Part shown: piece by piece, positions 15,623 to 61,597 of the stretch
Position numbering within the stretch: position 1 is the stretch's first letter
Layout: each line of letters opens with the position of its first letter
NCBI GenBank assembly: GCA_964347615.1
Contig: CAYFZO010000002.1
Coordinates: 22,261-86,260, forward strand
Length of the DNA: 64,000 nt
Direction of reading: 5' to 3'
Source: an uncultured Chromatiales bacterium
Lineage (GTDB): Bacteria > Pseudomonadota > Gammaproteobacteria > Poriferisulfidales > Oxydemutatoraceae
Translations under genes and position numbers: made by a program
The notes under the pieces: generated by a model
The model's database searches: none
What the model saw: the letters and a program-made list of their open reading frames with translations, nothing else
What the model was told of the DNA's origin: nothing

Positions 15623-16750
15623 CTAGCGCCCGCCCGGTATCGTGCTTGCGTCCAAAAACTTATCATAGAAAATACTTTCTTCGCAAAGCCCGGCTTCGGT
15701 CAGCGCCTTGATGCCCGCGTCTATCATCGGAGGCGGGCCGCACATGTAAGCTTGGCAAACCGTGACGTCAAGCAGACCGGGTTCGATGTAACGGCGGTGG
15801 AGATGCTCGGTGACAAACCCCCGCGGCCCGTCCCAGTCGCTGTCGTCCGGCTCGTTGGAAAGCACGAATTCAAACTCGAATTTATGGTCTTTATGCCAGT
15901 TTGAACGGATCTTTTCCATTTCCTCCCGGCAATAAATATCGGCCTGGGTGCGTGCACCGAACAAAAACACCGCGTCGCGTTGAATCTGGTCGTTGCACGC
16001 GGCTTCGAGCACCGCCTTGACCGCGCTCATGCCGCTGCCGCCGGCGATGCAAATCATCGGTGTGTCGCCGTCGCGCAGATAAAAATTGCCGTAGGGCGCC
16101 ACCACCGTCAAACGCGTCCCTTCACGGTTTTCGCCGAACAGCCACTCGGTGAACTCTCCGCCGGGGACAAGCCGCACGTAAAAGGTAACTTCTCCCTGGT
16201 TTTCGTTCTCGGGCGCTTTGGCGAACGAATAACTGCGTGGTTTGCTCAAGCCCGGGTATGAAATCTCCGCGTACTGCCCGGCCAAGACCCCGGCGGGAAT
16301 CGGCTCGTCGCAAACAATCGTCATCTCCATGATGTCGTGGGTCAGGCGGCGCGCGGAATTCAAGCTGCCTTCCCGGGTCACGACCGCAATCTTGCCGCTC
16401 TCCTCGAGCTCGACTTCGACCGCAACGTCACTTTTCAGCGCGGTCTGGCAGGCCAGGATCATGCCCTGGTTCAGCTGTTCAGGCGTCAAGACGTAGGAAA
16501 AGTCGTTGAGTGCCTTGATCTTGCCTTCCTTCAAGAAGCACCTGCACGTGCCGCAGCTGCCGACCCTGCAATCGTGCGGCCAATCAAGTCCCGCGGCGAG
16601 CCCCGCGGCAAGCAGGTTTTCACCGGCTTTCACGGTCAGCTCGTGTTCCGAGTTGATTGTCGCTCGCCAATCTTTTTTCTTAAACAGTCCAAACACCGTG
16701 AATAAAACCGCTGAAGTTAACCTCACTGCACGGGACACGCGCTTTCCCAA
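15623..16750 (-). CDS. XylA/CymAb-type monooxygenase reductase (N-terminal plant-type [2Fe-2S] ferredoxin fused to ferredoxin-NAD(P)+ reductase)
   Basis: N-terminal CxxxxCxxC...C motif (CRVGSCGTCRC...ILACQ), FAD-binding RSYSFA motif and NAD-binding ICIAGGSGMSAV motif. There is an unusual hydrophobic segment at the extreme N-terminus (LTSAVLFTVFGLF). Confidence 0.8.
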   Translation of the reverse strand: MGKRVSRAVRLTSAVLFTVFGLFKKKDWRATINSEHELTVKAGENLLAAGLAAGLDWPHDCRVGSCGTCRCFLKEGKIKALNDFSYVLTPEQLNQGMILACQTALKSDVAVEVELEESGKIAVVTREGSLNSARRLTHDIMEMTIVCDEPIPAGVLAGQYAEISYPGLSKPRSYSFAKAPENENQGEVTFYVRLVPGGEFTEWLFGENREGTRLTVVAPYGNFYLRDGDTPMICIAGGSGMSAVKAVLEAACNDQIQRDAVFLFGARTQADIYCREEMEKIRSNWHKDHKFEFEFVLSNEPDDSDWDGPRGFVTEHLHRRYIEPGLLDVTVCQAYMCGPPPMIDAGIKALTEAGLCEESIFYDKFLDASTIPGGR

Positions 16751-16838
16751 AAATAAAAGCGCCTGAGCCCATGATAAATGAGATCAAGCGCTTTTAGAAC
16801 AGAGCTTCACGCCCGAAAAGCTTCCGCCCGGGATAAAC

Positions 16839-17498
16839 CTAGACGTTGATAGAGATATCCCGCAACCGCCCTTCCTGCATGTCGTCCGCCGTCGGGACCG
16901 TCGTGAACGGAATGATTTTCTCCTTGCTCGTGCTCGGATGGCTCTTCACTTTCTCAAACCACGCGCTGATAGCGGGTTTCGAATTGACCACGTCGGCACG
17001 TCCCTTGACGTGCAGCATATTGGCGCACGCCGACCAATGAATGTCGGCCAAGGAAAAGTCACCGCATATAAAATCGCCTTTTTTCGGCGGGTTGGCGATT
17101 TGCTTGTCCAATGCGTCGAGAATCGGAGCAAGCTCCGAAACGGAGTCGTCGGCAATCATCTGCTGCGCCCGTCCCATCGCGACGGTAATCCACTGATACA
17201 TGATTGCGCGGTGAACACCGTTTCTCGGCACCAGCGACGGACCGAAACCCTTGTCGTCAAGGTATGACATCACGGCCAAAGTGCCGTAGACCGCATATTT
17301 GATGTCTCTCAGGGCCGGTGCTACCCCGAGAGGGGAAGTGCCGCTGAAATCGGAATCGGCGCCGGCGCTGTTCGGGTCAATCACCTTGGCTTCAATGTCC
17401 ACGCCTTTCTCGGCGGCGGTCTGCAAACATTTGGCAGTATCGATGCACTTGGGGTGCCCGTAAATCAACATCCGATTCCGTAACTGATCGCCAATCAT
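16839..17498 (-). CDS. glutathione S-transferase-like protein
   Basis: GST fold. The N-terminal thioredoxin-like part has a Cys (HPKC) near the usual catalytic position, and the C-terminal helical domain carries the DFSLADI motif. The start may be the internal MLIYGHPKC. Confidence 0.55.
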   Translation of the reverse strand: MIGDQLRNRMLIYGHPKCIDTAKCLQTAAEKGVDIEAKVIDPNSAGADSDFSGTSPLGVAPALRDIKYAVYGTLAVMSYLDDKGFGPSLVPRNGVHRAIMYQWITVAMGRAQQMIADDSVSELAPILDALDKQIANPPKKGDFICGDFSLADIHWSACANMLHVKGRADVVNSKPAISAWFEKVKSHPSTSKEKIIPFTTVPTADDMQEGRLRDISINV

Positions 17499-17606
17499 CT
17501 CAAAACGCCTCCTTTTTCTGGCTGGTCATCAAGAACACCGCCGCTTCAGCTACGGCGGCGCACGGGTCGCTGCGCCCGGCAGCTCCCAGCTGGCAAAACG
17601 CCGCGC

Positions 17607-17789
17607 TTAGCTCTCGTGTACGGTCAGTGCACCGGACGGGCACAGCTTGACCGTTTCACGAATGACTTCTTCGCTGGCGCCACTTTGGTCGATTACAAAC
17701 TTACCGTCCTCAACCTTGAACACGGTAGGCAGGTTCTCGACGCACTTACCCGCGTGGATGCAGGTGCCCTCGTCCCATCTTACTTCCAT
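17607..17789 (-). CDS. divergent 4Fe-4S mono-cluster (Fer4_19/DUF1271-like) small iron-sulfur protein
   Basis: 60 aa with the Cys pattern C-x-H-x-x-x-C...C-P (GTCIHAGKC...KLCPSGAL) typical of the divergent mono-cluster ferredoxin family. Confidence 0.5.
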   Translation of the reverse strand: MEVRWDEGTCIHAGKCVENLPTVFKVEDGKFVIDQSGASEEVIRETVKLCPSGALTVHES

Positions 17790-17940
17790 TGTCGGTATCC
17801 TCCATATATATCAAAACGAATAGGCACAAAAGTCCTTTCCGTCGTTATCGCTCCGGAACGACCCGCCCCGGAGGCAAAAGCACGGGTCCCGGGGGCAACC
17901 CCGAGACCCGCGATTTCTACCACGTCGGCCCGGTGAACCC

Positions 17941-19083
17941 TCAGGCGTAGCCCGCCTGCTTGTTCATCAGGTCCGCAATCCGTCGCTCGCCTTCAGAAGC
18001 CTCCTGCTCGTCCCACTTCTTCAACTGCTTCTGCATCATGGTGTGGAACAGCATCGGCAACAGCGCCACGCCGAACAACGCAAAATAGCCGTAGCCCGTG
18101 TTCGGAGCGCCCACTTCGTCCAATTCCCAAAAGTGGGTCTCGCCTCGGTCGTGGTGATCCGCCTGACGACCGATCTCGATGAAATACCAACTCGTGAACG
18201 CCGTCGAGTTGTCCCACGAGTGGCGGTAGTCTATCGGCTGACCCTTCTCCCGGATCAGACCATAGTGCTCCATGTAGTTCAGCGCCTCCAACTCAAAGTT
18301 CGAAACCAACCACATCACCGCCAAGCACGCTATACCCGTCCACCCGCCGGCGAACCAGAACAGGAACAACGACGGAAGGCTCATCGCGTAGCCGCGAAGC
18401 CAACGATTCTGCCACGACAAAAACGGAACTCCCAGACGCTCCAAGCGTTGCTTCTCCATGCTGTACAGAAACTTCGACTGACCCAGGTGGGACTTCGGAA
18501 AGTGAAGGTAGATGCTGCGACCGCGCGGGGACGTCGCCGGATCGTCGTCGCAACCCAACTCCAGATGATGGTTGTATACGTGCGCGTAGCAAAAATGCGA
18601 CGAACAACTCAATCCCATCATCCACCGCGAAATCACGAAACTGAAGCCTTTCGTGTGCGCCAACTCGTGTCCGTAAATTATCCCGATCCCCATGAATATC
18701 GCCGAAGACAGCGCCGCGCCCGCCAGTTGCGAACCCGTGATCCCCTGATACACCGTGATGCCCAGAATCTCCATCGTCCCAAAAGGCACCGCGTTCACGT
18801 ATTCATACACTCGCCACGCCAGGTTCAACTGCAACAGAATGAAAACCGCAAGCATCAGATACATCACCGCGTTCTGAAACGCCGGTATCCCATACAACTC
18901 GCCGTCCTCGTCGAAACCCGCGCCCATCGTGCGCCACGGCGTCAATGCGTCCAGCACAATCGCCATACCGAGCATATACACGCCCAGCCATACCCACGGG
19001 CCGCCTATGAATACGCCGTACATGCCCAGCACAATCGAAATCGGCGCCAGCATGTAACGACCGTTAATCAGGAACTTCTTCAT
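17941..19083 (-). CDS. AlkB/XylM-family integral-membrane non-heme diiron monooxygenase (alkane/xylene/p-cymene hydroxylase-like)
   Basis: Carries the histidine boxes HELAHTKG and HVYNHH. Also carries the AlkB-family signature NYMEHYGL and the ADHHDRG box, with multiple TM helices. I set the start at the ATG at 19081-19083 (MKKFLINGRY), which has a GGAGG RBS. Confidence 0.85.
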   Translation of the reverse strand: MKKFLINGRYMLAPISIVLGMYGVFIGGPWVWLGVYMLGMAIVLDALTPWRTMGAGFDEDGELYGIPAFQNAVMYLMLAVFILLQLNLAWRVYEYVNAVPFGTMEILGITVYQGITGSQLAGAALSSAIFMGIGIIYGHELAHTKGFSFVISRWMMGLSCSSHFCYAHVYNHHLELGCDDDPATSPRGRSIYLHFPKSHLGQSKFLYSMEKQRLERLGVPFLSWQNRWLRGYAMSLPSLFLFWFAGGWTGIACLAVMWLVSNFELEALNYMEHYGLIREKGQPIDYRHSWDNSTAFTSWYFIEIGRQADHHDRGETHFWELDEVGAPNTGYGYFALFGVALLPMLFHTMMQKQLKKWDEQEASEGERRIADLMNKQAGYA

Positions 19084-19292
19084 CGTTAAGCCTCCAGCTT
19101 GTTTACGTTGTTTATGAGGTTTGTTCTCTGTTTCCGGGAGGATTCGGAACCCAGCCCGACGTATAAAAGAGAGTGCCGTTCGGCACCCGCTTAATCTCAA
19201 TTGCATACCACAATTGCCCGACTACATCCAAGCATACATGCAAAAGCCTCTATATAACAATTGGTTAAGCTTGTGAATATCAGGCGGCAACC

Positions 19293-29773: not shown

Positions 29774-30010
29774 AACGCCAACGAGCGAACACGGACCGAA
29801 GCTCGCCAACAAATCGCGCGAAAGACCCGTCCTCTCCCACGACCCGGTCCAGATCCATCTCCACCACGACGTCACGCGCGAACTCGGTGCCGTCGAGAAA
29901 AAGAGTCTGACCCGTCTTATGGATCTCCTCCCTTAACTTCTGCTTGTAGCGAAAGTTCGACTTCCGGTCAAGCCGAAGCGAAGATACTTTCCGCCGTCAC
30001 AAAATCTATT

Positions 30011-33000
30011 CTACTCCGCCTTAGAGGGCAAGATCTTGTCGAACAGCTTCTTGAGCTTACCGGGCCCTTTCTCGACTTCGGGAGCGCCTTTGAAGTCCAC
30101 CTGCGGATCGTCCCAGCTGCCGTGCAGGTGGTAGCGCAGAGTGACGACCTTATCCACTTTCGAGCCGAGATCGGTCAGCTTGTCAACAAGAAACACCGCG
30201 GCGGCGCCGACAGGGCCGGCGAGCAAGGCACCGGCGACCGGCAGACCCGAGCTCAGGTTCGGCACGACGACGACCTCCTGGTCGTACTGCTTATTCCCGA
30301 CGTCGGTGGTGCCGCTGATCGACATCGCCAGCGCGGGCCCTGCGACGACAAAATCCTCGGTCCGCATGACGCTGTCTTGAAATCTGACTTCTCCTTCCAA
30401 GGTGTCGAAAGCCAACCCTTTCTCGATAACGTCGCGGAAGTCGAGCGACAGACGCCGCACGACGTGGCCGATGCTGAACAGCCCGAGCAGACGACCGACA
30501 CCGGGATCGGCTTTCTCGACAACGCCGTCCTTCAGATTAATTACGACTTCCCCCTTAAGTTTTTCAAGCGCGAACCCGGCGGGCGAGCCGGCCCAGTCGA
30601 CATCCCCGCTCAGGGAACCATCGCCGCCTTTAAGGCTGCTCGAAACGTCGAGCAGCCGCAGCATCCTCCCGTAGTCGCGTCCGTTCACGTCAAAATGAAA
30701 ACTGCTGAGGTGCCCTTGCTCGCCGAACGACCACTCCCCACTCATCACGCCCACCGTCTCACCGGCTTCAAAAGCGAGCCGGCTTATCCTCATGCCGCTA
30801 CTCGACGGTTCGGTGACAAGGTGCAGCTTGGACACCTGCAGATTCCCTAACCGGAACTCGGTGGCTTTGATTTCAAGCGGCGGCACGTCCGCCGGCTCCA
30901 GCTTCGAGGTGCCGGTCGGCGTACTCTTCGGCAAAAACAACCTCTCCATCTGCGCAAACACGGCGCCGTCGCCCCCGGGTATGAAGACCCACCCCTGCGC
31001 CCACGAGGCGTCCACCCGCAGCTTGCGCCCGCCGGTGGCGGGCTTGAGATCGACAAACGTCTCGCCCAACGGTTCGCCGCCTTTGCGCAGTTCGGCAAAC
31101 GACAAAGCGACGTGTTGCAGATAGGGGCTGCCCCCGGCACCGCTTGAACCGAACCAATCGTCAAGTTCGACCGGCTGATTGATTACGCCGCCAATCCTGA
31201 ACCGCCCGCGCTCGGGCGGCGGCTCGCCCGGACCGAAATGCAGATAACCCTGCGGCGTCGGCGAACGCGCACCCGCGTCCCTGATCAGCGCCGCCCTGAC
31301 GTCTTCCCCGTAAGACAACTCATACCGGGTCGTCTCGCCCAGATCGACGTCCGCCGAGAACTCGCGGCGTCGAGCCGCGGTTTTGCCGAACGGCGACGGC
31401 AAACCGATCTCGACCCCTTCAAGCGAAGAAGACAAGGTCATTTGCAACTCATACCCGCCTCCCTCGCGCAAGTTCGGTATCAGCAACTCGGCTTTCCACG
31501 GCGCCGTTCCCCGCACCGCGCCGCGCAGAGGCGTTTGCGACAGGTCGATCAATTCCGCCGCGGCCAAGTCGCCCTCGATCTCGAGCCGGGTCGCGCCCTG
31601 AGCGGGCGCCGCTTTGGCCCGCACCGGCACGCCGTTGAGCGTCGCCGCAAGCGACTGCGAACTGCCGCCGTTGCGATCGAAGTCGAGCGCGCCCGTCAAG
31701 TCGCTGAACTCAAGGTCGAGCGGCGCGACCCGCAAAGACGCCTTGTCAAAACTCAGCGTGCCGTTGACCGAGACGGGCTTGTCGACTTTCTTGCTCAACG
31801 GCGCCTTGACCGACAACCTGAGACTGCTGCCGCCGCCCGGCTCCAGATTGCGCATCACGACGCCGTCGGCGTCCACCAAGCGCGCGTCCTTGAGGTAATC
31901 GAGCACGCCCGGAAGCGGCCCCGTGCCGGACGCGGCGATGATGACGAAAGGTCGGGCGAGGTCTTCTATCTCGACCCGCGCCGACTGCGACAGCAATCCG
32001 TAATGTTCCAGCTTCGACGCCTCGACGACCAAGCGCTGGTTGTCAAAAACAACCCGCGCGTCGAGTTCGTGCAACGGTCGCCGATCTTTCTGGTAATTCA
32101 GCGTCGCGCCCGCAATCTCGCCTTCGGCGTGAAACCGCCCGTCGCCGTCCTTGAACGGAAACGACGACAACGCTCCGCTCAACTCGACGCGGGCGGATTG
32201 CAGAAAGCCCGCGTCGAACGCCCGTTCGAGCCACGCCTTAAGCCGCGGATTGATCCCGTCGCGCGGCAAAAAACCGCCGACCGAGGTCAGCGGCAGGTTT
32301 TCAAGCGACAACGCAAGGTCCAGCGACGGCTCCTCTTCGTCGAACCACGCAAGACGTCCGCCCAGACGCGCCTCGCCCAGCCTGAGCGACAGCTCGTCCG
32401 CACGGACGGTGCGAACCGCGCCGTCGTCGCTGTAACGCAACGCCGACGAAACACCGTCGAGATCGAACGAGCGGTCGGCCCAACCGGGAAACCGCACCGA
32501 GATCTTCTCCAGCGCCAACTTGCCCCGAGCCGTCTTGAGCGCGGGAAGCGAAAGCAGTCGGTCGACGTATCCGGCAGCGTATTCGGCGACGAAACGAACC
32601 CCGTCCTCGATCAGGCGCAACCGGTCGCGGTCGCCGCCCCCGGCAGCAACTCGGGCGGAAAACTCAGGGGGCGTGAAATCAGGGTGGGACAAAGACGCCG
32701 ACAGAGAAACCGAACCGCTTCCGGCGGAGACCTCGACGATTCGCGCCGACTCTTCCCCTCGTCCCGCGGCAAGCCGTGCACCCGCATCAAGCAACGCCGC
32801 GTCGAGTACCGGCATCCTTAACACCAGACCGGCGCCGTCCCCATAATAATCAACGGCGGCGTCGGCGTTGTGAATCACCAGCCGCGACGATTGCCAACCG
32901 ACGTCGAGCATCCCGAGCCGCCAACCGGCTTGATGTGCCCCCCACGACAGACGCGAGCGCGCCGAAATCGGTTCCGGTTGCGCCCCGGCAGCGCAAGCGT

Positions 33001-33829
33001 CGCAGGCAACCTCGCCGTCAAGCCATTGCAAAGCGCCGTCGCGCCAACCGCCCCACAGCTCGACGTTCAGCAGCCCCGTAGCGGCGCCGGGCCTGCCGAC
33101 TTGACGCGCCCATTGAGCCAGGTCGGCGTCGTCGGCGCGGACGTAAACCCGTCCCGCCCCCGCGTTGGCCGGGGCGTTTTCCCGACTATCTTGCTCGGGC
33201 GCGCCGACGTCGAAATCGGCGACGACGTGCAGAAACCGCCCGAGCTCCGCAGGCAGAAACGTCTTCAAGCCGAACCGAAACCGTCCGTCGCGGAATTCAA
33301 ACGCAACGTTGACGTTACTGAACTCGTGGTCGCTACCAACCCGTTCATTGCGCCAACGGACGTTCGCGTTTTCCAAGTGAAGGCTGACGCCCGCCGCCGC
33401 GGTCCCGCCCGAGGCGCCTTTGAGCAGATCGTCCAGAGGCAGAAAACCGGAGACGCGCGAACGGCCCTCGGCGTCGGTCACAACCAGGAAGTCGGTATCG
33501 AAAACGCGCAAGTCGGAAACCTTCACCGCGGCACTCAACAACGACCCGAGCAAATCAAATTCAACGTGCACCCGCCGGGCACGCAACGCTTGGTCGGAGA
33601 CGCCGGGCGGCTTGATCTCGACCTGAGACAGCTCGACAATCGGCTCGAAGCCACGCAACACCCCCTGCACCGTGCCCACCCGCACCTCGACGCCGATCGC
33701 TTCCGACAAGAACGCAACGACGTCGTCCGCGTAATAGTCCGCGTACGACAGCGCAAGCCTCAACCCCAGCGTCAACCCCGCAAAGAGAACCAGCGCCGCG
33801 GCGAAAACCGAAGCGACGCGCCCGACCAT
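30011..33829 (-). CDS. yhdP: YhdP-family (AsmA-like) large inner-membrane-anchored envelope protein
   Basis: About 1270 aa with a single N-terminal TM helix (VASVFAAALVLFAGLTLGL) and a long beta-rich periplasmic body. I set the start at ATG 33827-33829; it overlaps the maf stop in a TGATG configuration (translational coupling). The upstream 72 codons of the track ORF are arginine-rich GC artefact. Confidence 0.8.
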   Translation of the reverse strand: MVGRVASVFAAALVLFAGLTLGLRLALSYADYYADDVVAFLSEAIGVEVRVGTVQGVLRGFEPIVELSQVEIKPPGVSDQALRARRVHVEFDLLGSLLSAAVKVSDLRVFDTDFLVVTDAEGRSRVSGFLPLDDLLKGASGGTAAAGVSLHLENANVRWRNERVGSDHEFSNVNVAFEFRDGRFRFGLKTFLPAELGRFLHVVADFDVGAPEQDSRENAPANAGAGRVYVRADDADLAQWARQVGRPGAATGLLNVELWGGWRDGALQWLDGEVACDACAAGAQPEPISARSRLSWGAHQAGWRLGMLDVGWQSSRLVIHNADAAVDYYGDGAGLVLRMPVLDAALLDAGARLAAGRGEESARIVEVSAGSGSVSLSASLSHPDFTPPEFSARVAAGGGDRDRLRLIEDGVRFVAEYAAGYVDRLLSLPALKTARGKLALEKISVRFPGWADRSFDLDGVSSALRYSDDGAVRTVRADELSLRLGEARLGGRLAWFDEEEPSLDLALSLENLPLTSVGGFLPRDGINPRLKAWLERAFDAGFLQSARVELSGALSSFPFKDGDGRFHAEGEIAGATLNYQKDRRPLHELDARVVFDNQRLVVEASKLEHYGLLSQSARVEIEDLARPFVIIAASGTGPLPGVLDYLKDARLVDADGVVMRNLEPGGGSSLRLSVKAPLSKKVDKPVSVNGTLSFDKASLRVAPLDLEFSDLTGALDFDRNGGSSQSLAATLNGVPVRAKAAPAQGATRLEIEGDLAAAELIDLSQTPLRGAVRGTAPWKAELLIPNLREGGGYELQMTLSSSLEGVEIGLPSPFGKTAARRREFSADVDLGETTRYELSYGEDVRAALIRDAGARSPTPQGYLHFGPGEPPPERGRFRIGGVINQPVELDDWFGSSGAGGSPYLQHVALSFAELRKGGEPLGETFVDLKPATGGRKLRVDASWAQGWVFIPGGDGAVFAQMERLFLPKSTPTGTSKLEPADVPPLEIKATEFRLGNLQVSKLHLVTEPSSSGMRISRLAFEAGETVGVMSGEWSFGEQGHLSSFHFDVNGRDYGRMLRLLDVSSSLKGGDGSLSGDVDWAGSPAGFALEKLKGEVVINLKDGVVEKADPGVGRLLGLFSIGHVVRRLSLDFRDVIEKGLAFDTLEGEVRFQDSVMRTEDFVVAGPALAMSISGTTDVGNKQYDQEVVVVPNLSSGLPVAGALLAGPVGAAAVFLVDKLTDLGSKVDKVVTLRYHLHGSWDDPQVDFKGAPEVEKGPGKLKKLFDKILPSKAE

Positions 33830-34419
33830 CACGAGACCTCCAGCAAACCGACGCGCTCGAACATCCGTGAGACGACGAACAACGGCAGCCCCATCACGCC
33901 GCTGTAACTGCCTTCGAGCCGCTCGACGAACGCCGCGGCGCGACCCTGTATCGCATACGCACCCGCCTTGTCGCGGTATTCGCCGGTGTCGAGATACGCT
34001 TCGATGCGCCCGGCACCGAGTTCGGCGAACTTGACGTCGCTGCAATCGAGACGAACGTCTTCATCGCCGCCGTGCAACAGCGCCACACCGGTCAGCACCC
34101 GGTGCATCCTGCCCGACAAGGCGGCGAGCATCTTCGCCGCCGCGGAGCGCCCGGCGGGCTTGCCGAAGACTTCGCCGTCAAGCACGACGGCGGTGTCCGC
34201 CGCAAGCACCGGCAAAGACGCCTCCTTGAGGCGCTTCGCTTCGCGCGCCTTGCAACGGGCCAGCCGCACGACGTAATCCTCCGGCGCTTCCGCCGACACG
34301 CGCGTCTCGTCTATGCCGACGGGGGCCGACTCACAGACGACGCCCAGCTGTTCAAGCAGCTGGACGCGACGCGGGGAAGCCGACGCCAGAATGACCTTGG
34401 GTGTACGCAACGCGGTCAT
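33829..34419 (-). CDS. maf: Maf-like nucleoside triphosphate pyrophosphatase (septum formation protein Maf)
   Basis: 196 aa; ILASASPRR...LGVV...DE and the conserved GKP and AYAIQG motifs of the Maf/Ham1 family. Confidence 0.85.
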   Translation of the reverse strand: MTALRTPKVILASASPRRVQLLEQLGVVCESAPVGIDETRVSAEAPEDYVVRLARCKAREAKRLKEASLPVLAADTAVVLDGEVFGKPAGRSAAAKMLAALSGRMHRVLTGVALLHGGDEDVRLDCSDVKFAELGAGRIEAYLDTGEYRDKAGAYAIQGRAAAFVERLEGSYSGVMGLPLFVVSRMFERVGLLEVS

Positions 34420-34586
34420 GATTGACTGAAAATCTGCATCAAGCGCGAATTATGACACCCACGGCGCATCGAACCCCCGCCCGTCCGACGCCCCCCCCGC
34501 CGTTCATCGCCCCGGTTGAACCGCCCGCGGAAAATCCGGGAACACGCCAGGGCAAACACCGGCAAACACTCGGGGAAACGGCGCGC

Positions 34587-34904
34587 CTATTCTCGATGGT
34601 AAGAAGGCCCCGACGGCAACGACCATCCTCGACACAGCTGCTCGATGAGCATCAACCGCTTTGAAAACGACCAGCTCTCGCCGGCACCCGCCTCGCCTGT
34701 CGAACGTGCCGACGTCGCCGCAAGCACCGCGCGCCTTTCCTTCTCGAGACACGCCTGCACCGAAACGCCGCGGGTGCGCTTGACCTGAGGCACTTCCTTG
34801 ACAACGATCGGGCACGCCGCGTTCATTCGCTTAAGGTATTCGCCGGCGCCGGCCTCGGCTCACGCGGGCAGGCGGCGGCTGACCGGGACAATGCAAGACT
34901 TCAC
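34587..34904 (-). pseudogene. rlmH: degraded rlmH (23S rRNA m3-pseudouridine1915 methyltransferase) remnant
   Basis: Reading from the GTG right after the rsfS stop gives VKSCIVPVSRRLPA*AEAGAGEYLKRM...SGPSYHRE. This aligns to E. coli RlmH ([27 protein letters not shown]...NHPYHRE). Two lesions are present. One is an in-frame TGA at the conserved Trp codon. The other is an internal deletion of about 49 aa that removes the SPOUT SAM-binding core (LLIGGPEGL region). The track reports only the distal 79-aa piece. Confidence 0.5.
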
Positions 34905-34907
34905 CGC

Positions 34908-35276
34908 TCAACCCGCGTCGCGCGCGTCGGCGTTGCGTTCGGCGAACGTTTTGTGCTCGGTCCGCCACAGCTGTTCGAGGTTGTAGAACTCGCGGGTCTC
35001 CCGTTGCATCACGTGCACGACCGCGTCGCCGAAATCCAGCAGCACCCATTCACCGTCCTCCTTGCCTTCGACGCCGAGCACCTCGCCTCGTGCCTGCTTC
35101 ACCCGTTCGACAAGCCGCTCGGCGACCGCCTGCACGTGGCGGTTTGAAGTGCCGGTCGCAACAAAGACGAAGTCGGTGATCGTCGTCTTCCCGCGCACGT
35201 CCATCATCACCAAGTCCAGCGCCTTGGCGTCCTCAAGACCGCTCCTGACCAGCGCCGCCAGCTGCTCAGCCTGCAT
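34908..35276 (-). CDS. rsfS: ribosomal silencing factor RsfS (Iojap family)
   Basis: 122 aa; DLVMMDVRGKTTITDFVFVATGTSNRHVQAVAERL...WVLLDFGDAVVHVM matches RsfS/YbeB. Overlaps the nadD start by 11 nt. Confidence 0.9.
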   Translation of the reverse strand: MQAEQLAALVRSGLEDAKALDLVMMDVRGKTTITDFVFVATGTSNRHVQAVAERLVERVKQARGEVLGVEGKEDGEWVLLDFGDAVVHVMQRETREFYNLEQLWRTEHKTFAERNADARDAG

Positions 35277-35919
35277 CGTATCCGTAAAGACGGTGGCGAC
35301 GGATGTAATTCCACACCGTGCCGGGCATCAGGTAGCGGGGCTGCTCGCCGCGTTCGAGCAGGGCGCGTACCGCGGTGGACGACGCGGCGACGACGTCGTT
35401 GTCGAACCGGCACACCCGTCCCGCCGGCCGCCGCGCAAGCTCGGCGAGCTCGGCGGGGCCGCCGCTCGCCTCAAGCAGCGGGTGGTCCGCGCCGACCTCG
35501 GCGCAATCGGGGCGACGGGTGACAATCAAGTGAGCCAGCTCAAGCAGCTGCCGGTAATCACGCCAATGGCAAACGCCGCCGAACGCATCTTCGCCCATCA
35601 TGAAAGCCAGCGGCGCGTCGGCACCCAGCTCGGCACGAAATCCGCGCAAGGTATCCACCGTGTAGCCGAGGCCCTCGGCCTGCATCTCGCGGACGTCCAC
35701 GACCATCCCCGGCGGACGCAAGACCAAATTGAGCATCGCCAAGCGGTGTTCGTCGGAAGCGAGGTCGCCGATACGACCCTTATGCGGATGCAGGCGGCTG
35801 GGCACGAAAACCACCCGCGCGATCTCCTCTCGCTGCAGCAGCTGCAAAGCCGGTTTGACGTGCCCGAGATGAACCGGGTCGAAAGCGCCGCCGAAAATCG
35901 CGATGATTCCGCCGGGCAA
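35266..35919 (-). CDS. nadD: nicotinate-nucleotide adenylyltransferase
   Basis: HxGH-type nucleotidyltransferase motif (GGAFDPVHLGH) and C-terminal SSTAVR motif. Synteny is nadD-rsfS-rlmH. Confidence 0.9.
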   Translation of the reverse strand: MPGGIIAIFGGAFDPVHLGHVKPALQLLQREEIARVVFVPSRLHPHKGRIGDLASDEHRLAMLNLVLRPPGMVVDVREMQAEGLGYTVDTLRGFRAELGADAPLAFMMGEDAFGGVCHWRDYRQLLELAHLIVTRRPDCAEVGADHPLLEASGGPAELAELARRPAGRVCRFDNDVVAASSTAVRALLERGEQPRYLMPGTVWNYIRRHRLYGYDAG

Positions 35920-35937
35920 CGCATCCTCTCTCAGGCT

Positions 35938-37203
35938 TTAAGTGCGAACGTTGCCGTCGCCGAACACGACGAACTTCTGCGTGGTCAGACCTTCGAGCCC
36001 GACCGGCCCCCGCACGTGAAGGCGGTCGGTGCTGATACCGATCTCCGCACCCAGACCGTACTCGAAACCGTCGGCAAACCGCGTCGACGCGTTGACGATC
36101 ACCGAACTCGAATCAACTTCGCGCGTGAACCGCCGCGCTTTTTCCTCGTCCTCGGTCACAATCGCGTCGGTGTGGTGCGAGCCGTGCCGGGCGACGTGCG
36201 CCAGCGCCTCGTCGAAGCCGGCAACGGTTTTCACCGACAAAATCGGCGCCAAGTACTCGGTGTCCCAATCTTCTTCGGTCGCCGCCGCTGCGCCGTTGAG
36301 AAACGGCAAGCTTCTGTCGCAACCCCTGAGCTCGATGCCCGCCGTACGCAACGCTTCCGCGGCTCGCGGCAGGAACTCGGCGGCGATTCCGGCGTCGACG
36401 AGCAAGGTCTCCATCGCGTTGCACACCCCGACGCGTTGCGCCTTCGCGTTGACGGCGATCGCAAGCGCCTTGTCCAGGTCGGCGTCGCGGTCGACGTAGA
36501 CGTGGCAAACCCCGTGGAGATGCTTAATCACCGGGATCTTCGATTCCTCCGACACCCGTTCGATCAACGCTTTGCCGCCGCGCGGAATAATCACGTCAAT
36601 CAAGTCATCGAGCGAAAGCATCTCGCCGACCGCTTCGCGCGAAGTCGTCGCGACGAGCTGCACGCACCCCCGCGGCAGCCCCACCTCGGCGATGCCCGCG
36701 TGGACGCATTCGGCGATTGCCTGGTTGGAACGCATCGCTTCGGAACCGCCCCTGAGCAGCACCGCGTTGCCCGACTTCAGGCACAAGCCGGCGGCGTCCG
36801 CGGTTACCGTCGGGCGCGCCTCGTAGATGATGCCGATGACGCCGATCGGCACCCGCATCCGCCCGACGCGGATACCCGACGGACGGGACTGCATCCCGCT
36901 GACCGCACCGACCGGGTCGTCGAGCGCGACGATTTGACGCAAGCCTTCGGCCATCGCCTCGATGCGCTCGTCGTTCAACGCCAGACGATCGAGCAAGGCG
37001 TCGTCCATGCCCTTGCTCCTGCTCTGCGTCAGATCCTTGCGGTTTTCCTCGAGCAGGCGCGCACGGGCGTCGAGCAAGGCCGCGGCGATCGCTTCCAAGG
37101 CTCGGTTCTTTTGCGCGGCGTCGGCGGCGCCCAACGCCCGCGTGCTTTCGCGCGCCATCTCAGCGAGACCGCGCACCGAACCTTTTTGATAGTCGCTGCT
37201 CAT
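35938..37203 (-). CDS. proA: gamma-glutamyl phosphate reductase
   Basis: Aldehyde dehydrogenase-family ProA with the catalytic Cys region ([10 protein letters not shown]). I set the start at ATG 37201-37203 (MSSDYQKG). proA is adjacent to nadD, as in Pseudomonas. Confidence 0.9.
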
Positions 37204-37207
37204 CGTT

Positions 37208-38236
37208 TCACGCCTGCGTCGCCGGACGATAAACAAGGCGCCTGTGCATCGCCCGCGCACCCGCGATCCGGAGCGTCAACTCGAGCAACTCGTTCCACTC
37301 GGCGTCGTCGCCCACGCCCTTGGCCGCCTTGTCGGCCTCGGCGCACCAGAAGAGCAGGCGTTGCCAGCGCGCGCCGAGCTTTCTGCCGAGCGCCTTCTTC
37401 AGGATCCCGCGCTTGGTGCGCCATTCGCTCCTGAGCAAGGCGTCAACGCTTTCGCCGGCGGCGACGCGCCGTTCGAGCGTCGCGAGCTTCCTGACCTGCG
37501 CCACCAGTCCCCACAACACCAGCACGATCGGCTGGTTCTCGCTCCTGAGCCCGCGCAGAACCGTCACCGCGCGCTTGCCGTCCCCGACGACCGCCGCGTC
37601 GGCAAGGTCGTACGGACTGAACCGGGCGTTGTCGCCGACCGACGCAAGCACGTCTTCCTCACGAACCACTTCGTCGGGATAAAGCAGCGACAACTTGATC
37701 ACTTCCTGCGCCGCCGCGAGCATGTTGCCTTCGGTGTGTTCGATGATGATGTCAATCACTTGGCTTTCGGTCCTCAAACCCGCTTTCAAGGTCCGCTCCC
37801 TCAACCACGGTTTCATCTCGGTCGGTGTCTTTCGGTAGACCTGCACCAAGACGCCGATCTCGGCGGCTTTCTTGACCCACGCCAGACGCCCGTCGAGCTT
37901 CGGCGTACGCACCATGAGCAACACCCCCTCGGGAGGCGAGGCGACGAACTCCCTGAAGAAGTCGCTGCCACCGGACTTGGCCGACATGAAACACACGTCG
38001 AACAGCTGCCGCGTCGAAAACAACCCCAGATTGTTCGAAGCAAGGGTCATCCGACTCCAGTCAAATCCGTCGTCGACCGCAAACAGGCGGTGCTCCTCGA
38101 TGCCTTGCTTGCGCGCCGCCGCGCGAATCAAGTCGGCGGCTTCCATCCTTTGCAAAGGCTCGTCGCCGACAATCAGGTAAATCGGCGCGAGCGGTTTCTC
38201 CAACGCCGCGGGCAACCGGTTAAAATAGGTTTTCAT
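37208..38236 (-). CDS. holA: DNA polymerase III delta subunit
   Basis: 342 aa; N-terminus [28 protein letters not shown] is typical of HolA. Conserved lptE-holA neighbourhood downstream of leuS. Confidence 0.85.
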
Positions 38237-38280
38237 TCGTTGATTTTACCGCGAGCGGAACCTCTACCGGAGACCGAACC

Positions 38281-39159
38281 ATGCCCTCTGAAACCGTTTC
38301 TTTCATCGGCCCCGGCATCATGGGCGGACCCATGGCGCTGAACCTTCTCAAAGGCGGCCACCGCCTTTTCGCCTACGCGCGGCGGGCGCAGGCCCTCGAG
38401 CCACTGGCCGAGGCAGGCGCCGCGACCTGCGCCTCTTGCGCCGAAGCCGCCGCCGCGTCCGACTTCTGCATCGTCATGGTATCAGACACCCCCGACGTCG
38501 AAGAGGTCCTGTTCCGCGAGGACGGGGTCGCGGCGGGGGCACGCGCCGGCAGCGTCGTCGTCGTGATGAGCACGATCTCGCCGCAGGCGATTCCCGGGAT
38601 GGCCGAACGGCTTGCGCAAAAGGAGGTGCACCTGCTCGACGCACCGGTCTCCGGCGGCGACGTCGGCGCGCGCGCCGGTACCCTCTCGATCATGGTCGGC
38701 GGCGAGGAAGACGCCTTCAAACGCGCTTTGCCGATGTTGGAGTGCATGGGCAAGAACGTCGTGCACGTCGGCGCCGCCGGGGCCGGACAGGTCGCCAAGA
38801 CGTGCAACCAACTTCTCGCGGCACAGACCATCGCCGCGGTCGCCGAGGCGTTCGAGTTCGCACGCGCCGCCGGGGTTGACCGCGCCAAGGTGCGCGAAGC
38901 ACTGCTCGGCGGCTTCGCCTACAGCCGCGTGCTCGAGCTGCACGGGCAAAGAATGCTCGACGACGATTACGCCCCGGGGTTCAAGGCCGAACTGCATCTG
39001 AAAGACATGAACATCGCGGCGGATTTCGCCGCCGAGAGGCAACTCACGCTGCCGGGCACGGACGCCGCACGCGGCCTCCTGGAACAGTTGGTCGCCGAAG
39101 GCGGCGGCGAACTGGATTCATCGGCGATAGCCAAAGTGGTCGCGGCGAAAGCGCGGTAA
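38281..39159 (+). CDS. NAD(P)-dependent 3-hydroxyisobutyrate/tartronate-semialdehyde dehydrogenase-family oxidoreductase
   Basis: N-terminal Rossmann motif FIGPGIMGGPMALNL and the HIBADH-family catalytic region. Inserted on the opposite strand between holA and lptE. Confidence 0.8.
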   Translation: MPSETVSFIGPGIMGGPMALNLLKGGHRLFAYARRAQALEPLAEAGAATCASCAEAAAASDFCIVMVSDTPDVEEVLFREDGVAAGARAGSVVVVMSTISPQAIPGMAERLAQKEVHLLDAPVSGGDVGARAGTLSIMVGGEEDAFKRALPMLECMGKNVVHVGAAGAGQVAKTCNQLLAAQTIAAVAEAFEFARAAGVDRAKVREALLGGFAYSRVLELHGQRMLDDDYAPGFKAELHLKDMNIAADFAAERQLTLPGTDAARGLLEQLVAEGGGELDSSAIAKVVAAKAR

Positions 39160-39224
39160 CAGCGGCGGCAACGTCGATTCGGTCCGGGGCCGGGAAAACA
39201 CGGGGCCGCTGGCGCTTCACGCAA

Positions 39225-39761
39225 TCAGCGCCCGATCGTCGAAAGGCGCAGCACGATCTTTCTGCACAGTTCGGCTTCGAGGTCTCCGGCGACGGTGCGT
39301 TTTTCGTTCTTGGAGAGCAACGGCCGGTCGGGGTCGGTCAAGTACGCGGCTTCGGCCTTCACGGTCTGCTCGGGCAACAAGGTGTCAAGCTTCTTCCCGC
39401 CCGAGCGCACGCTGAACGACGTTTCAACGGTCAGCATGTACTCGCGCGCCTTGACGTCGTCGCCGACCGCGCTGCGCCTCTGGCGTTCGCGTCTGCCGGA
39501 AAAAATCAGACGCGCCGACGCGCGCGCCGGCGACACCACCTTGACGCCGTAGCCGTGCAAGGTGACGACCAGCGTCTTGCGTAAGCTTTCATATCGTCCC
39601 AGCCCCTCGATCGAAACCCGCTTCAACACCGGCGAAAAAATCCGCCCTCGGTCCTCGCCGGACCCGGCGAGGTGATAACCGCAGGCCGAGAGCGCCGCGA
39701 CCAGCGCCGCCGACGCCGCGAACGCCAACGCGCGAAAGACGAAACCTCGGAAAAGCGTCAT
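39225..39761 (-). CDS. lptE: LPS-assembly lipoprotein LptE
   Basis: 178 aa with a lipobox (LSACGY) after the signal peptide. Position is leuS-lptE-holA. Its 5' end overlaps the leuS stop by 4 nt. Confidence 0.8.
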   Translation of the reverse strand: MTLFRGFVFRALAFAASAALVAALSACGYHLAGSGEDRGRIFSPVLKRVSIEGLGRYESLRKTLVVTLHGYGVKVVSPARASARLIFSGRRERQRRSAVGDDVKAREYMLTVETSFSVRSGGKKLDTLLPEQTVKAEAAYLTDPDRPLLSKNEKRTVAGDLEAELCRKIVLRLSTIGR

Positions 39762-43665: not shown

Positions 43666-45128
43666 ACCCGTCGCCTCGCCGCCGCAACCGCAAGGCCAAG
43701 CACCGAAAGCAAGGACCACGCCAGCACCGGGACGTCGCCCCAAACCGAATACGGAGTGCGCCCGCGGCGCGGTTCGACCGTCGCGGTGAGCAGCTGTTCG
43801 GCGAACTGCCGCGAACGTTCGACCACGTTCCCCTCGTGGTCGATGACCGCCGAGACGCCGGTGCTGGTCGCCCTGACCATCGCCCGCCCGGTCTCCGCCG
43901 TGCGCAACCGGGCAAGCTGCAAATGCTGATACGGCGCGGTCGAGTCGCCGAACCACGAGTCGTTGCTGACGTTGATCAAGTAAGCGGCCTCCGGCAAAGC
44001 GTCCATTATCTCACTTGCGAATGAAACTTCATAACAAATCGAAACCCCGACGTCGTGTTCGCCGACGCGCATCAAAGGTCGGTCGCGCCCGGCCTTGAGA
44101 TCGGACATCGGAATCAGTATCCACGCCCTGAAAAAGTTCAGCAGACCACGCAACGGCAGGTATTCGCCGAAAGGCACCAGATGCCGCTTGCGGTAGACCT
44201 GCGGCGGGGACGCGACCTTGACCAGCGCGTTGTAAGCGCCGCCGTCCTCGTCGCGCACGAAAGCGCCCAGCACGAACTCCCCGCCGGCTTCACGGATCTC
44301 GTCGCCGAGCGGCACCGCCAGCTCCTTCTCGAGCAAATCGTAATACGCCGGCACCGCGGTCTCCGGCCACAGCACGAGATCGGCGCCCAGCGCGCGCGCG
44401 CTCAGCCCGCGGTAAGCCTCGACGATGCGCCGGAAGTTGTCCCGGTCGAACTTGAGGTTCTGCTCGACGTTGCCTTGCGCCAGCGCAACCTCGACGCGCT
44501 CTCCGGCGGGGGCGGTCCATTCAAGCAACGCCGAGACCGCACCCGCGACCGAGACCACGACGAAAGCGCCGGCGGCGACGATGACAGTCCGGGTATTGCG
44601 ACGTGAGAAGGCGAGCACCAGACAGCCCGCAAGAAAAACCACAAGCCACGACGCGCCGGTCGCACCGAACACCGGCAACACCCCGGCGAGCGGAGAATCC
44701 ACCGCCGCCTGCCCGACGAAGTTCCACGGAAACCCGGTCAGCAGAACGCCCCTCAACCATTCGCTCAAGCTCCACAGCGACGGATACAGCAACAGGCACG
44801 AAGGCGCAATCGGAACGAAGCGCGCGGCGCACGAGACCGCCCAAGCCAAAGCCGCGAAATACACCGCCAAAGCCGCGACGAACAACAAGGTCGCCGCGAC
44901 CGCAAGCATCGCCGGCGCCTCGCCGAAGTCGTGCAAGCTGTAATAGACCCAGTAGAAGCTCGTGGCGAAATGCGCGAAACCGAAAACCCAGCCGCTCAAC
45001 GCCGCCGCTTTCGGCGTGCGCCGCCGCCACGACCACAGCACCGCCGCCGGCACCAGCGCCGCGAGAGGAAACCACGACAAGGGCGCGTAAGCGCCGGTCA
45101 GCGCAACCCCCGCCACCGCGTTGAACAT
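43650..45128 (-). CDS. lnt: apolipoprotein N-acyltransferase
   Basis: N-terminal polytopic membrane region and C-terminal CN-hydrolase (nitrilase-like) domain. Conserved position downstream of corC (ybeX). Confidence 0.85.
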   Translation of the reverse strand: MFNAVAGVALTGAYAPLSWFPLAALVPAAVLWSWRRRTPKAAALSGWVFGFAHFATSFYWVYYSLHDFGEAPAMLAVAATLLFVAALAVYFAALAWAVSCAARFVPIAPSCLLLYPSLWSLSEWLRGVLLTGFPWNFVGQAAVDSPLAGVLPVFGATGASWLVVFLAGCLVLAFSRRNTRTVIVAAGAFVVVSVAGAVSALLEWTAPAGERVEVALAQGNVEQNLKFDRDNFRRIVEAYRGLSARALGADLVLWPETAVPAYYDLLEKELAVPLGDEIREAGGEFVLGAFVRDEDGGAYNALVKVASPPQVYRKRHLVPFGEYLPLRGLLNFFRAWILIPMSDLKAGRDRPLMRVGEHDVGVSICYEVSFASEIMDALPEAAYLINVSNDSWFGDSTAPYQHLQLARLRTAETGRAMVRATSTGVSAVIDHEGNVVERSRQFAEQLLTATVEPRRGRTPYSVWGDVPVLAWSLLSVLGLAVAAARRRVWKTN

Positions 45129-45999: not shown

Positions 46000-46531
46000 C
46001 GGATGAACGATCGGCGACCCGCACTCGGTAGGGATTCTCAAAACCCAGACGGCTCAGAACGGCGATTTCCCGTGCTTCCATCCGCTCGGCCTCCCGGTCC
46101 TCGGCGTGGTCGTAGCCTTGCAAGTGGAGCATCGCGTGAACGAACAGATGCGCCCAATGGGCGACGGGCTGCTTGCCCTGCTCGCGCGCCTCGGCCTCGA
46201 CCACCGGCGCGGCGATCACGACGTCGCCAAGCGGCTTCGGCTCGCCGCCGGGCGGCATCGGCGCGTCGCAAGGGAAAGCCAGCACGTTGGTCGGCGCAGG
46301 CCGGTTGAAGTGCCGCCGGTTCAACGCGGCGGACTCCTCGACGTCGACCACGACCACGCACACCTCGAGCCCCGCGTCCGGCCCGGCCTTCGCACCCGCG
46401 TCGAGCGCCGCGTCGGCCCAGCGGTTGAAGTCGGCGCGCGCCGGAACGTCGAAACGGGCGAGGTCGTCCAGGTTCGTCTTCAGGACGACCTCGACGGCGC
46501 GCGGCGGGTTGTCCTCACGACTTCTCTTCAT
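45992..46531 (-). CDS. ybeY: rRNA maturation endoribonuclease YbeY
   Basis: Metal-binding H-x3-H-x5-H motif (HAMLHLQGYDH) and a conserved NVLAFP segment. Overlaps the corC start by 8 nt. Confidence 0.85.
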   Translation of the reverse strand: MKRSREDNPPRAVEVVLKTNLDDLARFDVPARADFNRWADAALDAGAKAGPDAGLEVCVVVVDVEESAALNRRHFNRPAPTNVLAFPCDAPMPPGGEPKPLGDVVIAAPVVEAEAREQGKQPVAHWAHLFVHAMLHLQGYDHAEDREAERMEAREIAVLSRLGFENPYRVRVADRSSDE

Positions 46532-47519
46532 GGTCCTCGTAGGCGCGGATAATGCGCTTGACCAGGGCGTGGCGAACCACGTCCTCGGAGCCGAAGTGCA
46601 CGAAGTTGACGCCTTCGACCTTGTCGAGCACGCGCGTGACGTGCCTGAGCCCCGACTCCCTGTTGTCGGGAAGGTCCACTTGGGTGACGTCGCCGGTCAC
46701 CACGGTTCTCGAACCGAAGCCGACGCGCGTCAAGAACATCTTCATCTGCTCGATCGTCGTATTCTGCGCCTCGTCGAGAATAATGAACGCCTTGTTCAGG
46801 GAGCGCCCGCGCATGTAGGCCAGCGGCGCAATCTCGATCATGTTCTTGTCGATCAACTTGTTGACCCGGTCGAAACCCATGGTCTCGTAAAGCGCGTCGT
46901 ACATCGGCTTCAGGTAAGGGTCGACCTTCTGCGCCAGGTCGCCCGGAAGAAACCCGAGCCTCTCACCGGCCTCGACCGCCGGCCTGACCAGCACCAGCTT
47001 GTCCACCGCGTTCTTCTCCAGCGCCTCGACGCCCGCCGCGACCGCGAGATAGGTCTTGCCGGTGCCGGCCGGGCCGATGCCGAAAGTCAGGTCGCAATTA
47101 CGCATGCTCGTCAGATAATCGGCCTGGGCCGCGCCTTTGGCCTTGACCCGGGTGTGGCGCGTGCGCACCAGCACGTCCTCGCGCTGCGGCTCCTCGACCA
47201 CCTTGTGCAAATTGGCGTCCTGCAAGTAAAGGTGAACCTCGTTTGAAGTCAGTTCCTCGTCTTCGGTCGTGTCGTACAAGGCCTTGATGATCTTGACGGT
47301 TGCACGACCCGCCCCCTCGGAACCGGAAACCGAAAAGTAGTTGCCTCGGTTGAGAATCTGAACGCCGAAGCGTTGCTCTATCTGGCGCAAGTGCTCGTTC
47401 ATGGGGCCGCATAGATTGACCAAGCGGGGATTGTCGGCGGGCTCGAGAACGAGCGAGAAGCTGCGGATTCGGTCTGTCAAAAAAGTCTTGGGCGCACCGG
47501 TCGATAACGTGAGCGTCAT
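46515..47519 (-). CDS. phoH: PhoH-like ATPase (YbeZ)
   Basis: Walker A GPAGTGKTYLAV and the PhoH signature LVLVRPAVEAGERLGFLPGDL. I set the start at ATG 47517-47519 (MTLTLSTG). The upstream 82 codons of the track ORF are arginine-rich artefact. Confidence 0.9.
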   Translation of the reverse strand: MTLTLSTGAPKTFLTDRIRSFSLVLEPADNPRLVNLCGPMNEHLRQIEQRFGVQILNRGNYFSVSGSEGAGRATVKIIKALYDTTEDEELTSNEVHLYLQDANLHKVVEEPQREDVLVRTRHTRVKAKGAAQADYLTSMRNCDLTFGIGPAGTGKTYLAVAAGVEALEKNAVDKLVLVRPAVEAGERLGFLPGDLAQKVDPYLKPMYDALYETMGFDRVNKLIDKNMIEIAPLAYMRGRSLNKAFIILDEAQNTTIEQMKMFLTRVGFGSRTVVTGDVTQVDLPDNRESGLRHVTRVLDKVEGVNFVHFGSEDVVRHALVKRIIRAYEDHEEKS

Positions 47520-55626: not shown

Positions 55627-56006
55627 CGCGACCTCTCTGCAACGCCCTCGACAGCCGGCAAACCGCGCTTGAACCTGCACGGGCGGGCGATTTTATCACC
55701 CTGCTTGGCAGTAACCTGCCGTCGCGTACGCCAAGTGAGCAAGACAACGCTCGCAAAGGACGTTGTTAAGGGCATGGGTGCGATGCCGACGTCTCGCCGC
55801 GCCTAGCCGACTACGAGTTCTCCCACAACTACCAACACCCGCACCGGGTGCTGGCTTCGAGCATTCCAATGGAGTATCTTGAGCACCTCGGAATAGCTGT
55901 TTGAAAGAGAGGCCTTTTGTCTCATAATGTCCTGAACCCATACATTGACGTAGAGCACGTACTCTCATACATTATCCTGTTCTCGTATTTCCCTCAGGAT
56001 GGGTCT

Positions 56007-56552: not shown

Positions 56553-56837
56553 CAGTCCGGCAACCGGACCAGGGCTGTGTGAAGCAAGGCTGGGAAAAAT
56601 ACGCGAGCCGATAATAAAACACCGAAAGAAGATGGAAAAGGCACGTTGATTCCGGATTATGAAACAGAAATCGATTACCTGAACTGCGAATCAATATCTC
56701 GAAACGCCCAGTGAGTATACTGTCTCATTAGAGGCCGCTTGATTCCCCGATGTCATAATGTACTGAGCCAGCCGCGCGGCAACTTGCTTGGTTGTTGAAC
56801 TTCAGCTATCGTTGTCACCGGGAACCTTGGAGGCCCA

Positions 56838-57098: not shown

Positions 57099-57213
57099 GC
57101 CAGCCAAGAGAAGCCATCACGTATTCCTTAGCAAGGCGAAATTCCGCAATATCAGGAGAAGCTTCTATAAATCTTGTTCAACTGAACTCGGTGAACTCGC
57201 CCGGCACAATCCT

Positions 57214-58179: not shown

Positions 58180-58336
58180 GGCCGCTCACCGAGCCGGATT
58201 CTCGCACTTTATAGCCCACCGATTGCAAACCCAATCTCAAAAAGCGCGGCAAGCAAGGCCAAAGCCGCGTGGACAAGTGCCTCAAGTGCCTAAGTAATAC
58301 TCGGCGACAAGAAATCAGCCGCCCGGCGTCAGCCGG

Positions 58337-61588: not shown

Positions 61589-61597
61589 TTTTTCTCC

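Follow-up and report, generated by a model that had tools for sequence, protein, structure and literature searches.

We find that an interval of 318 nt directly 3' of rsfS (34904-34587, minus strand) in the stretch of DNA analysed here, the whole 64 kb of which we refer to as the window, is very probably a unitary pseudogene of rlmH, sitting at the ancestral position of this gene in a nadD-rsfS-rlmH-maf-yhdP cluster. The product of rlmH is a SPOUT methyltransferase that makes m3-pseudouridine 1915 (m3Ψ1915) in 23S rRNA, and bacteria normally have a single rlmH, adjoining rsfS. Comparison with relatives indicates that, after the split from the lineage of the related loci L001 and L070, the window copy gathered at least four disabling lesions, namely a change of TGG to TGA at codon 15 and three deletions, of 16, 113 and 24 nt, and that these deletions took out all three of the bights that form the SAM pocket. 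The organism would be expected to lack m3Ψ1915 unless a second rlmH resides elsewhere, a loss that may have been tolerated since the modification is dispensable, possibly with relaxed selection in a host-associated (sponge-symbiont-like) lifestyle. The original prediction had described an inactivated remnant of rlmH with a nonsense codon at Trp15 and without its SAM-binding core, and in these respects our analysis bears it out.

The genes of the rsfS-rlmH-maf stretch all lie on the minus strand. The stop codon of rsfS (TGA, 34910-34908) is followed 3 nt further on by the GTG of the relic (34904-34902), from which the frame reads VKSCIVPVSRRLPA-TGA-AEAGAGEYLKRM...SYHRE and closes with TAG at 34589-34587; past the TGA (34862-34860) the translation is AEAGAGEYLKRMNAACPIVVKEVPQVKRTRGVSVQACLEKERRAVLAATSARSTGEAGAGESWSFSKRLMLIEQLCRGWSLPSGPSYHRE. 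Alignment to PF02590, which had been proposed as a check, gave a split match when the TGA was set to W: with 34.5 bits (E = 2.5e-8; the curated cutoff is 27 bits), the 105-aa translation aligns in two pieces that cover profile positions 4-65 and 134-154 of 154. BLASTP aligns the relic to Escherichia coli RlmH with an E-value of 2e-13 and a 50-residue gap. Frame, profile and BLASTP agree on the RlmH-like GTG frame with its internal TGA that had been claimed for this site, and the homology of the relic to RlmH, judged by these scores, is far above chance. Neither a full-length, above-cutoff match to PF02590 nor an uninterrupted ORF of ~155 aa is present for the relic. All four retained blocks share 79-85% DNA identity with the intact rlmH of L070, and orthology is indicated both by position, 3' of rsfS and 5' of maf, and by nucleotide homology to the genes of sister lineages. 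We note that the public assemblies containing the loci L038 and L039 have no gene call in the rlmH interval, and that Rfam, promoter and terminator scans of 33.5-35.5 kb returned nothing above noise and nothing overlapping the relic.

The lesions (Table 1) were defined against the intact L070 rlmH, which encodes the 156-aa protein P0001, with L001 and L002 as support. Alignment to these related orthologs, which had likewise been proposed, showed TGG at codon 15 and a full frame in all three, and at least 90% of 20 aligned RlmH sequences have W in the column of codon 15, in keeping with the claim that the TGA falls at a conserved Trp. The N-terminal block of codons 1-63 (34716-34904) is identical to L070 at 160 of 189 positions. 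Beyond it lies a 28-nt segment that matches reference position 206 at 23 of 28 nt, in L070 and in L001 alike; since the runner-up position reaches only 16/28, this segment does not appear to be an artefact of the alignment. We also considered a model with one deletion of 129 nt, under which the same segment matches at 12/28 or 7/28 rather than at the 23/28 obtained with two deletions, and rejected it. The first two deletions sum to 129 nt (16 + 113), so that the reading frame is regained after the second, and the total loss relative to L070 is 153 nt, or 51 codons (16 + 113 + 24). The loss of a core of ~49 residues had been proposed; the SAM-binding core is indeed gone, but through three deletions, two of them frame-shifting, and not through one.

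Table 1. Features of the rlmH relic, its neighbors and other regions of the window (positions are those of the window).
Feature	Position	Strand	Remarks
Ferredoxin-NAD(P) reductase-type protein	15623-16750		Fer2 + FAD_binding_6 + NAD_binding_1
219-aa ORF	16839-17498		No Pfam match
Membrane fatty-acid-desaturase/alkane-hydroxylase-family protein	17941-19206		
maf	33829-34419	-	Intact downstream neighbor; PF02545 186 bits, profile positions 1-186/187
rlmH-maf spacer	34420-34586	-	167 nt; ~40 nt maf-proximal (34420-34458, GTGTCATAATTCG...CAGATTTTCA) conserved with L070
Probable rlmH pseudogene	34587-34904	-	GTG to TAG, 105 codons including in-frame TGA
Residual 79-aa ATG ORF downstream of TGA	34587-34826	-	Pfam 17 bits, below cutoff of 27
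Retained C-terminal helix and tail	34587-34659	-	RLMLIEQLCRGWSLPSGPSYHRE + TAG; 58/70 identity to L070
24-nt deletion junction	34659-34660	-	LTFPHSLA removed (E. coli L125-V132, bight 3 including H129)
Retained in-frame block ...GESWSFSK	34660-34687	-	Reference nt 347-374; 22/28 identity at position 347
113-nt deletion junction	34687-34688	-	Reference nt 234-346 lost; frame restored
28-nt out-of-frame segment	34688-34715	-	Reference nt 206-233; now encodes TSARSTGEA
16-nt deletion junction	34715-34716	-	Reference nt 190-205 lost; frame shifted
Retained in-frame codons 16-63	34716-34859	-	Part of N-terminal beta-alpha region; ungapped versus L001 and L070
TGA nonsense codon at Trp15	34860-34862	-	TGG in L001, L070 and L002; same TGA in L038 and L039
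rsfS	34908-35276	-	Intact upstream neighbor, ends in TGA; PF02410 112 bits
Zeta-toxin/AAA_33-like protein	54868-55680		Low-GC3 right end
AAA ATPase	57214-58179		Low-GC3 right end
Type I restriction R subunit	58337-61588		Low-GC3 right end
Large ORF running off the window	61834-63999		Low-GC3 right end

Translation from the GTG of the relic ends after 14 residues, and the deletions bear on what could be made by reading further. In E. coli RlmH three bights of the knot build the SAM pocket: L72, D73 and I74 make up bight 1 (the beta3-alpha3 loop), bight 2 consists of L102, the glycine-rich 103-GGPEG-107 and L108, and bight 3 (the beta5-alpha5 loop) spans L122-V132 and includes H129, with bights 1 and 3 also contributing to the dimer interface (PMC5430550). 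We mapped these residues through an alignment of 20 intact RlmHs and the relic. Bight 1 falls in the out-of-frame segment between the 16-nt and 113-nt deletions and is not kept; the GGPEG of bight 2 lies inside the 113-nt deletion, and the GG..G columns, conserved in at least 90% of the 20 RlmHs, are missing from the relic; the 24-nt deletion corresponds to bight 3. With every SAM-binding loop of the SPOUT knot lost, the product of the relic could not be a methyltransferase, and by this mapping it is predicted to be incapable of SAM binding, knot formation, dimerization or rRNA methylation, even if the TGA were read through. The relic keeps E138, R142, S145, Y152, H153, R154 and E155 (E. coli numbering; tail ...IEQLCRGWSLPSGPSYHRE), and so still contains all of the catalytic triad and tail residues E138, R142, Y152, H153 and R154. 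The conserved Y141 of this tail has changed to C, and an L to P and an S to P change are also present in it.

Relatives of the window were collected using RsfS as an anchor. L001 is from an uncultured Chromatiales MAG (RsfS identity 84%) whose rlmH is partial in the available sequence, L002 (OZ243040.1) is a complete 1.94-Mb chromosome labeled Ca. Oxydemutatoraceae (RsfS 69%), and L070/L071 (Logan SRR23238410 and SRR23264968; RsfS 82%) is the DNA that encodes P0001. The latter was the single match when a large protein database was queried with the remnant, and it is a full-length RlmH of 156 aa; no short form of RlmH was found in that database. TGG and an intact rlmH frame are found in the nearest lineages, L001, L070/L071 and L002, and the loss is therefore recent and lineage-specific. 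A scan of JGI metagenomes for lineages between the window species and L001/L070 gave a best RsfS identity of 55%, and a genome scan found no RsfS between 84% and 100% identity to that of the window. Two loci do carry the relic, and in both it is base-for-base identical to that of the window, with its TGA and three deletions. L038, a 51-kb short-read contig from a separate assembly, matches the window without a single difference over 12.4 kb; L039, on a 1.15-Mb contig of another ENA assembly, is 97.7% identical over 9.2 kb (210 differences), and its flanking gene content differs from that of the window, which marks it as a separate strain. At least in the sampled strains, which are ~2.3% apart, the loss has gone to fixation. 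We place the inactivation, from these comparisons, after the split from the L001/L070 lineage (~88% DNA identity) and before the two strains separated.

The age and constraint of the relic can be gauged from its divergence. Genes neighboring the relic share 86-89% DNA identity between the window and L001, and the 79-85% identity between the relic blocks and L070 is about equal to this. The dN/dS relative to L001 is 0.38 for rlmH codons 1-63 and 0.14-0.26 for holA, proA, nadD and rsfS, while lineage-specific changes in 94 in-frame codons, polarized with L002 as outgroup, number 13 nonsynonymous to 11 synonymous in the window and 6 to 10 in L070 (Fisher p = 0.35). Constraint on the relic may thus have been relaxed, but with few sites this is a trend that is not significant, and it is in keeping with a gene that died fairly recently. 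The identity of the relic in the two strains is uninformative on constraint, because the whole maf-relic-rsfS patch is only ~0.3% diverged between them. Past the TGA the frame stays open for 90 codons (P ~0.06 in random sequence of 61% GC), and the net deletions are in frame (129 + 24 nt), for which the chance is ~1/9. The in-frame sums, the 90 open codons and the kept tail might be read as residual constraint; recent inactivation would explain them equally well, since in-frame sums have a chance of ~1/9 and the divergence of the relic from L070 is at most about that of the neighboring genes from L001.

We note that divergence between the window (30000-39300) and L039 is patchy, at ~5-6% in the 3' part of yhdP (30300-31200), ~3% in nadD and ~0.3% across maf-relic-rsfS, which suggests recombination between strains. 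The flanks of L039 carry a D12-class methyltransferase where the window has lptE/leuS, and an AAA_15/SMC_N ATPase where the window has an ABC transporter.

Several other accounts of this locus deserve consideration. The general prior for metagenome assemblies is all that speaks for an error of sequencing or assembly that hides an intact gene, and since L038 and L039 carry an identical relic, with four separate lesions that are the same in a short-read contig and in a diverged strain, the relic is no such artefact and is older than the strain split; we regard the probability of an error as negligible. A working, truncated RlmH-like protein of 105 aa would result if UGA were read as Trp, through genetic code 4 or programmed read-through, and it is true that the TGA falls exactly at a Trp codon and that the frame downstream is open to the canonical SYHRE. 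TGA nevertheless closes rsfS, maf, nadD and holA, and the majority of the remaining high-GC3 ORFs of the window, at Pfam-consistent lengths, and since the Pfam models are matched to their ends, UGA is an ordinary stop codon in this organism. TGG to TGA is moreover a single transition and the commonest route to nonsense at a Trp codon, and the read-through product would carry 9 out-of-frame residues and lack bights 1-3, so this alternative from the original prediction, which fails on stop-codon usage and on the missing SAM-binding loops alike, is next to inconceivable. The original prediction also took the site for a rearrangement breakpoint, at which an event that swapped mrdA-rodA for maf-yhdP would have cut rlmH. 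Although mrdA is flanked by rlmH in many genomes (PMC12516126), an rlmH followed by a PBP2-type gene (mrdA) was confirmed among our loci only in Moritella (L014) and a Pseudomonadales MAG (L019), whereas maf lies immediately 3' of an intact rlmH in the closest relatives, L002 and L070/L071, and in ~18 additional beta- and gammaproteobacterial loci. The order in L002 is nadD-rsfS-rlmH-maf (Maf by Pfam), with a yhdP homolog farther downstream, and in L070/L071 it is rsfS-rlmH-maf, with the same 3 nt between rsfS and rlmH as in the window and a spacer of 126 nt before maf. The 167 nt between the TAG of the relic and the maf ATG at 34419, a gap whose predicted length our measurement (34586-34420) reproduces, thus make up an ordinary rlmH-maf spacer, the ends of which are conserved with L070. 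The relic retains its 5' end, its 3' end and its native stop region, and every deletion is internal to the gene. By comparison with these relatives the gene order of the window is the lineage-typical rlmH-maf arrangement; the argument from lost synteny, based on the E. coli order rlmH-mrdA-rodA, does not transfer to ancestral rlmH-maf lineages, and a breakpoint is vanishingly unlikely.

Two further possibilities accept the lesions and differ in what they imply for the cell. A second, intact rlmH elsewhere in the genome, either a duplicate or a xenolog, could have allowed the syntenic copy to decay while m3Ψ1915 is still made; yet a tblastn search with 20 diverse RlmHs found only the relic in the 64-kb window and in the 12-kb loci of L038 and L039, and the syntenic copy is the intact one in L070/L071 and L002, so that we consider such redundancy improbable. 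The search for an intact rlmH, mrdA and rodA that had been called for was carried out within the window, by a Pfam scan of 30 further ORFs; among these there was no mrdA, no rodA, no second rlmH and no rluD, the gene for the enzyme that makes the Ψ1915 on which RlmH acts. It is also conceivable that the residual 79-aa ORF (ATG at 34826) is expressed as a neofunctionalized mini-protein, a small ribosome-binding or RsfS-associated factor that would rely on a retained basic patch (the equivalent of K42/R43) and on the C-terminal tail with E138, R142, Y152, H153 and R154. Losses that sum in frame and the 90 open codons after the TGA would suit such a protein, as would the kept tail residues, on which both ribosome binding and catalysis depend in E. 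coli (PMC5430550). Against this, no relative has a short form and the protein search gave the full-length P0001 only, gene callers skipped the ORF in L038 and L039, no Shine-Dalgarno-like motif is seen by eye 5' of the ATG (GAATACCTTAAGCGAATG), the kept tail carries the Y141 to C, L to P and S to P changes, and bights 1 and 3, which would provide the dimer interface, are missing. All of these features are expected of a young pseudogene; we would give the mini-protein an exceedingly small chance, and the 79-aa ORF is, on its sequence features, probably not a gene. We regard as highly unlikely the broader proposition that m3Ψ1915 on helix 69 has been abandoned in a gene-dense genome of 61% GC, or else that the 79-aa ORF is a non-catalytic ribosome-binding factor beside rsfS. 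A unitary pseudogene of rlmH remains the reading that we favor.

Within the rsfS-maf interval the sole differences between the window and L039 lie in the spacer, at 34491-34572. A 10-nt unit (GTGTTTGCCG-like) is present in 2 copies in the window and 3 in L039, there are substitutions within the repeats at 34553 and 34560, and a poly-G tract has 8 residues in the window and 7 in L039; these look like minor slippage-type variation. Variation of another kind is seen in L002, where a 161-bp unit corresponding to rlmH nt 1-161 occurs in four extra tandem copies between rsfS and the intact rlmH (L002:6363-7157; by TRF, period 161, 4.9 copies, 93% matches and no indels). Each extra copy has an ATG and an open frame of 54 codons (50 RlmH residues and a short tail), and 23 of the 161 columns vary between copies, codon positions 3, 1 and 2 standing at 10:6:2 and the changes being mostly silent. 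This repeat may represent a real amplification, gene conversion or an effect of assembly. Because of these tandem copies, we describe the 5' region of rlmH as structurally unstable in the clade of the window and L002. More distantly, no RlmH was detected in the 4-6 kb downstream of rsfS in L008, L010, L011, L012, L013 and L015 (gammaproteobacterial MAGs of ~43% GC, RsfS ~52%) or in L048. Several of these RlmH-negative loci have a convergent gene of 664 aa directly after rsfS, and L008 has a gap of 560 nt without explanation at the rlmH spot. Going by these loci, the adjacency of rsfS and rlmH is not universal.

Set beside RlmH of E. coli (YbeA; PF02590 SPOUT_MTase/COG1576; PDB 1NS5, 5TWJ and 5TWK), the relic is alike in its N-terminal 63 and C-terminal ~30 residues and in its position after rsfS, and differs in the nonsense codon at W15, 51 lost codons, 9 codons out of frame, the absence of the bights and the change of Y141 to C. 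P0001 of L070/L071 and the partial gene of L001 resemble it more closely, with a GTG 3 nt after rsfS, maf downstream and 79-85% DNA identity; P0001 departs from it in running to its full 156 aa and in having TGG as codon 15; the four lesions are those of the window copy. The original prediction held the loss to be unusual for a near-universal methyltransferase, which we consider overstated. Several mollicute groups lack rlmH (PMC7226160), and E. coli strains with rlmH deleted are viable and serve as a source of unmethylated ribosomes for assays (PMC5430550), so that loss of rlmH is a known kind of event. As in the mollicutes, the same non-essential rRNA modification gene would have been lost inside an rlmH-positive clade (PMC7226160), but the mollicutes have reduced genomes, whereas the loss here is at the pseudogene stage in a gammaproteobacterium of 61% GC that has no minimal genome and whose 64-kb window otherwise appears gene-dense and intact. 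Unitary pseudogenes of eroding host-associated genomes, for example that of Serratia symbiotica (PMC5013485), offer a further parallel, in that the relic is likewise syntenic and bears a nonsense mutation together with internal deletions; the difference is that, for the window organism, only the labeling of related genomes points to host association. Its nearest named relatives, the sponge symbionts of Ca. Oxydemutatoraceae (PMC11685487), include Ca. Oxydemutator, which is placed in the Chromatiales. The window organism would, on RsfS identities of 69-84% to labeled MAGs, be a relative of the Ca. Oxydemutator group, for which a host-associated lifestyle is plausible.

The significance of these observations is mainly for annotation. 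They document the ordinary, recent loss, particular to this lineage, of an rRNA modification enzyme that is conserved yet dispensable, in an uncultured Chromatiales-like bacterium with a probable kinship to sponge symbionts. The interval 34587-34904 should be annotated as a pseudogene and the 79-aa ORF should stay uncalled. If the whole genome has no other rlmH, the lineage would provide a natural ΔrlmH comparison for studies of helix-69 modification.

The window otherwise appears gene-dense and unremarkable, encoding among others a branched-chain amino-acid ABC transporter, guaA, xseA, dksA, pnp, LPS heptosyltransferases, an iron-type ABC transporter, proA, holA, leuS, lptE and a miaB-like gene. 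In addition to the 219-aa ORF of Table 1, ORFs without a Pfam match are found at 46173-47246 (357 aa), 8953-9504 and 44055-44606. The group of genes at 15623-19206, which includes the reductase-type and desaturase/hydroxylase-family proteins, may form a hydroxylase or desaturase system. Lastly, the right end of the window (54868-64000) has a GC3 of 0.37-0.57, as compared with ~0.8 elsewhere, and is probably a horizontally acquired defence island.
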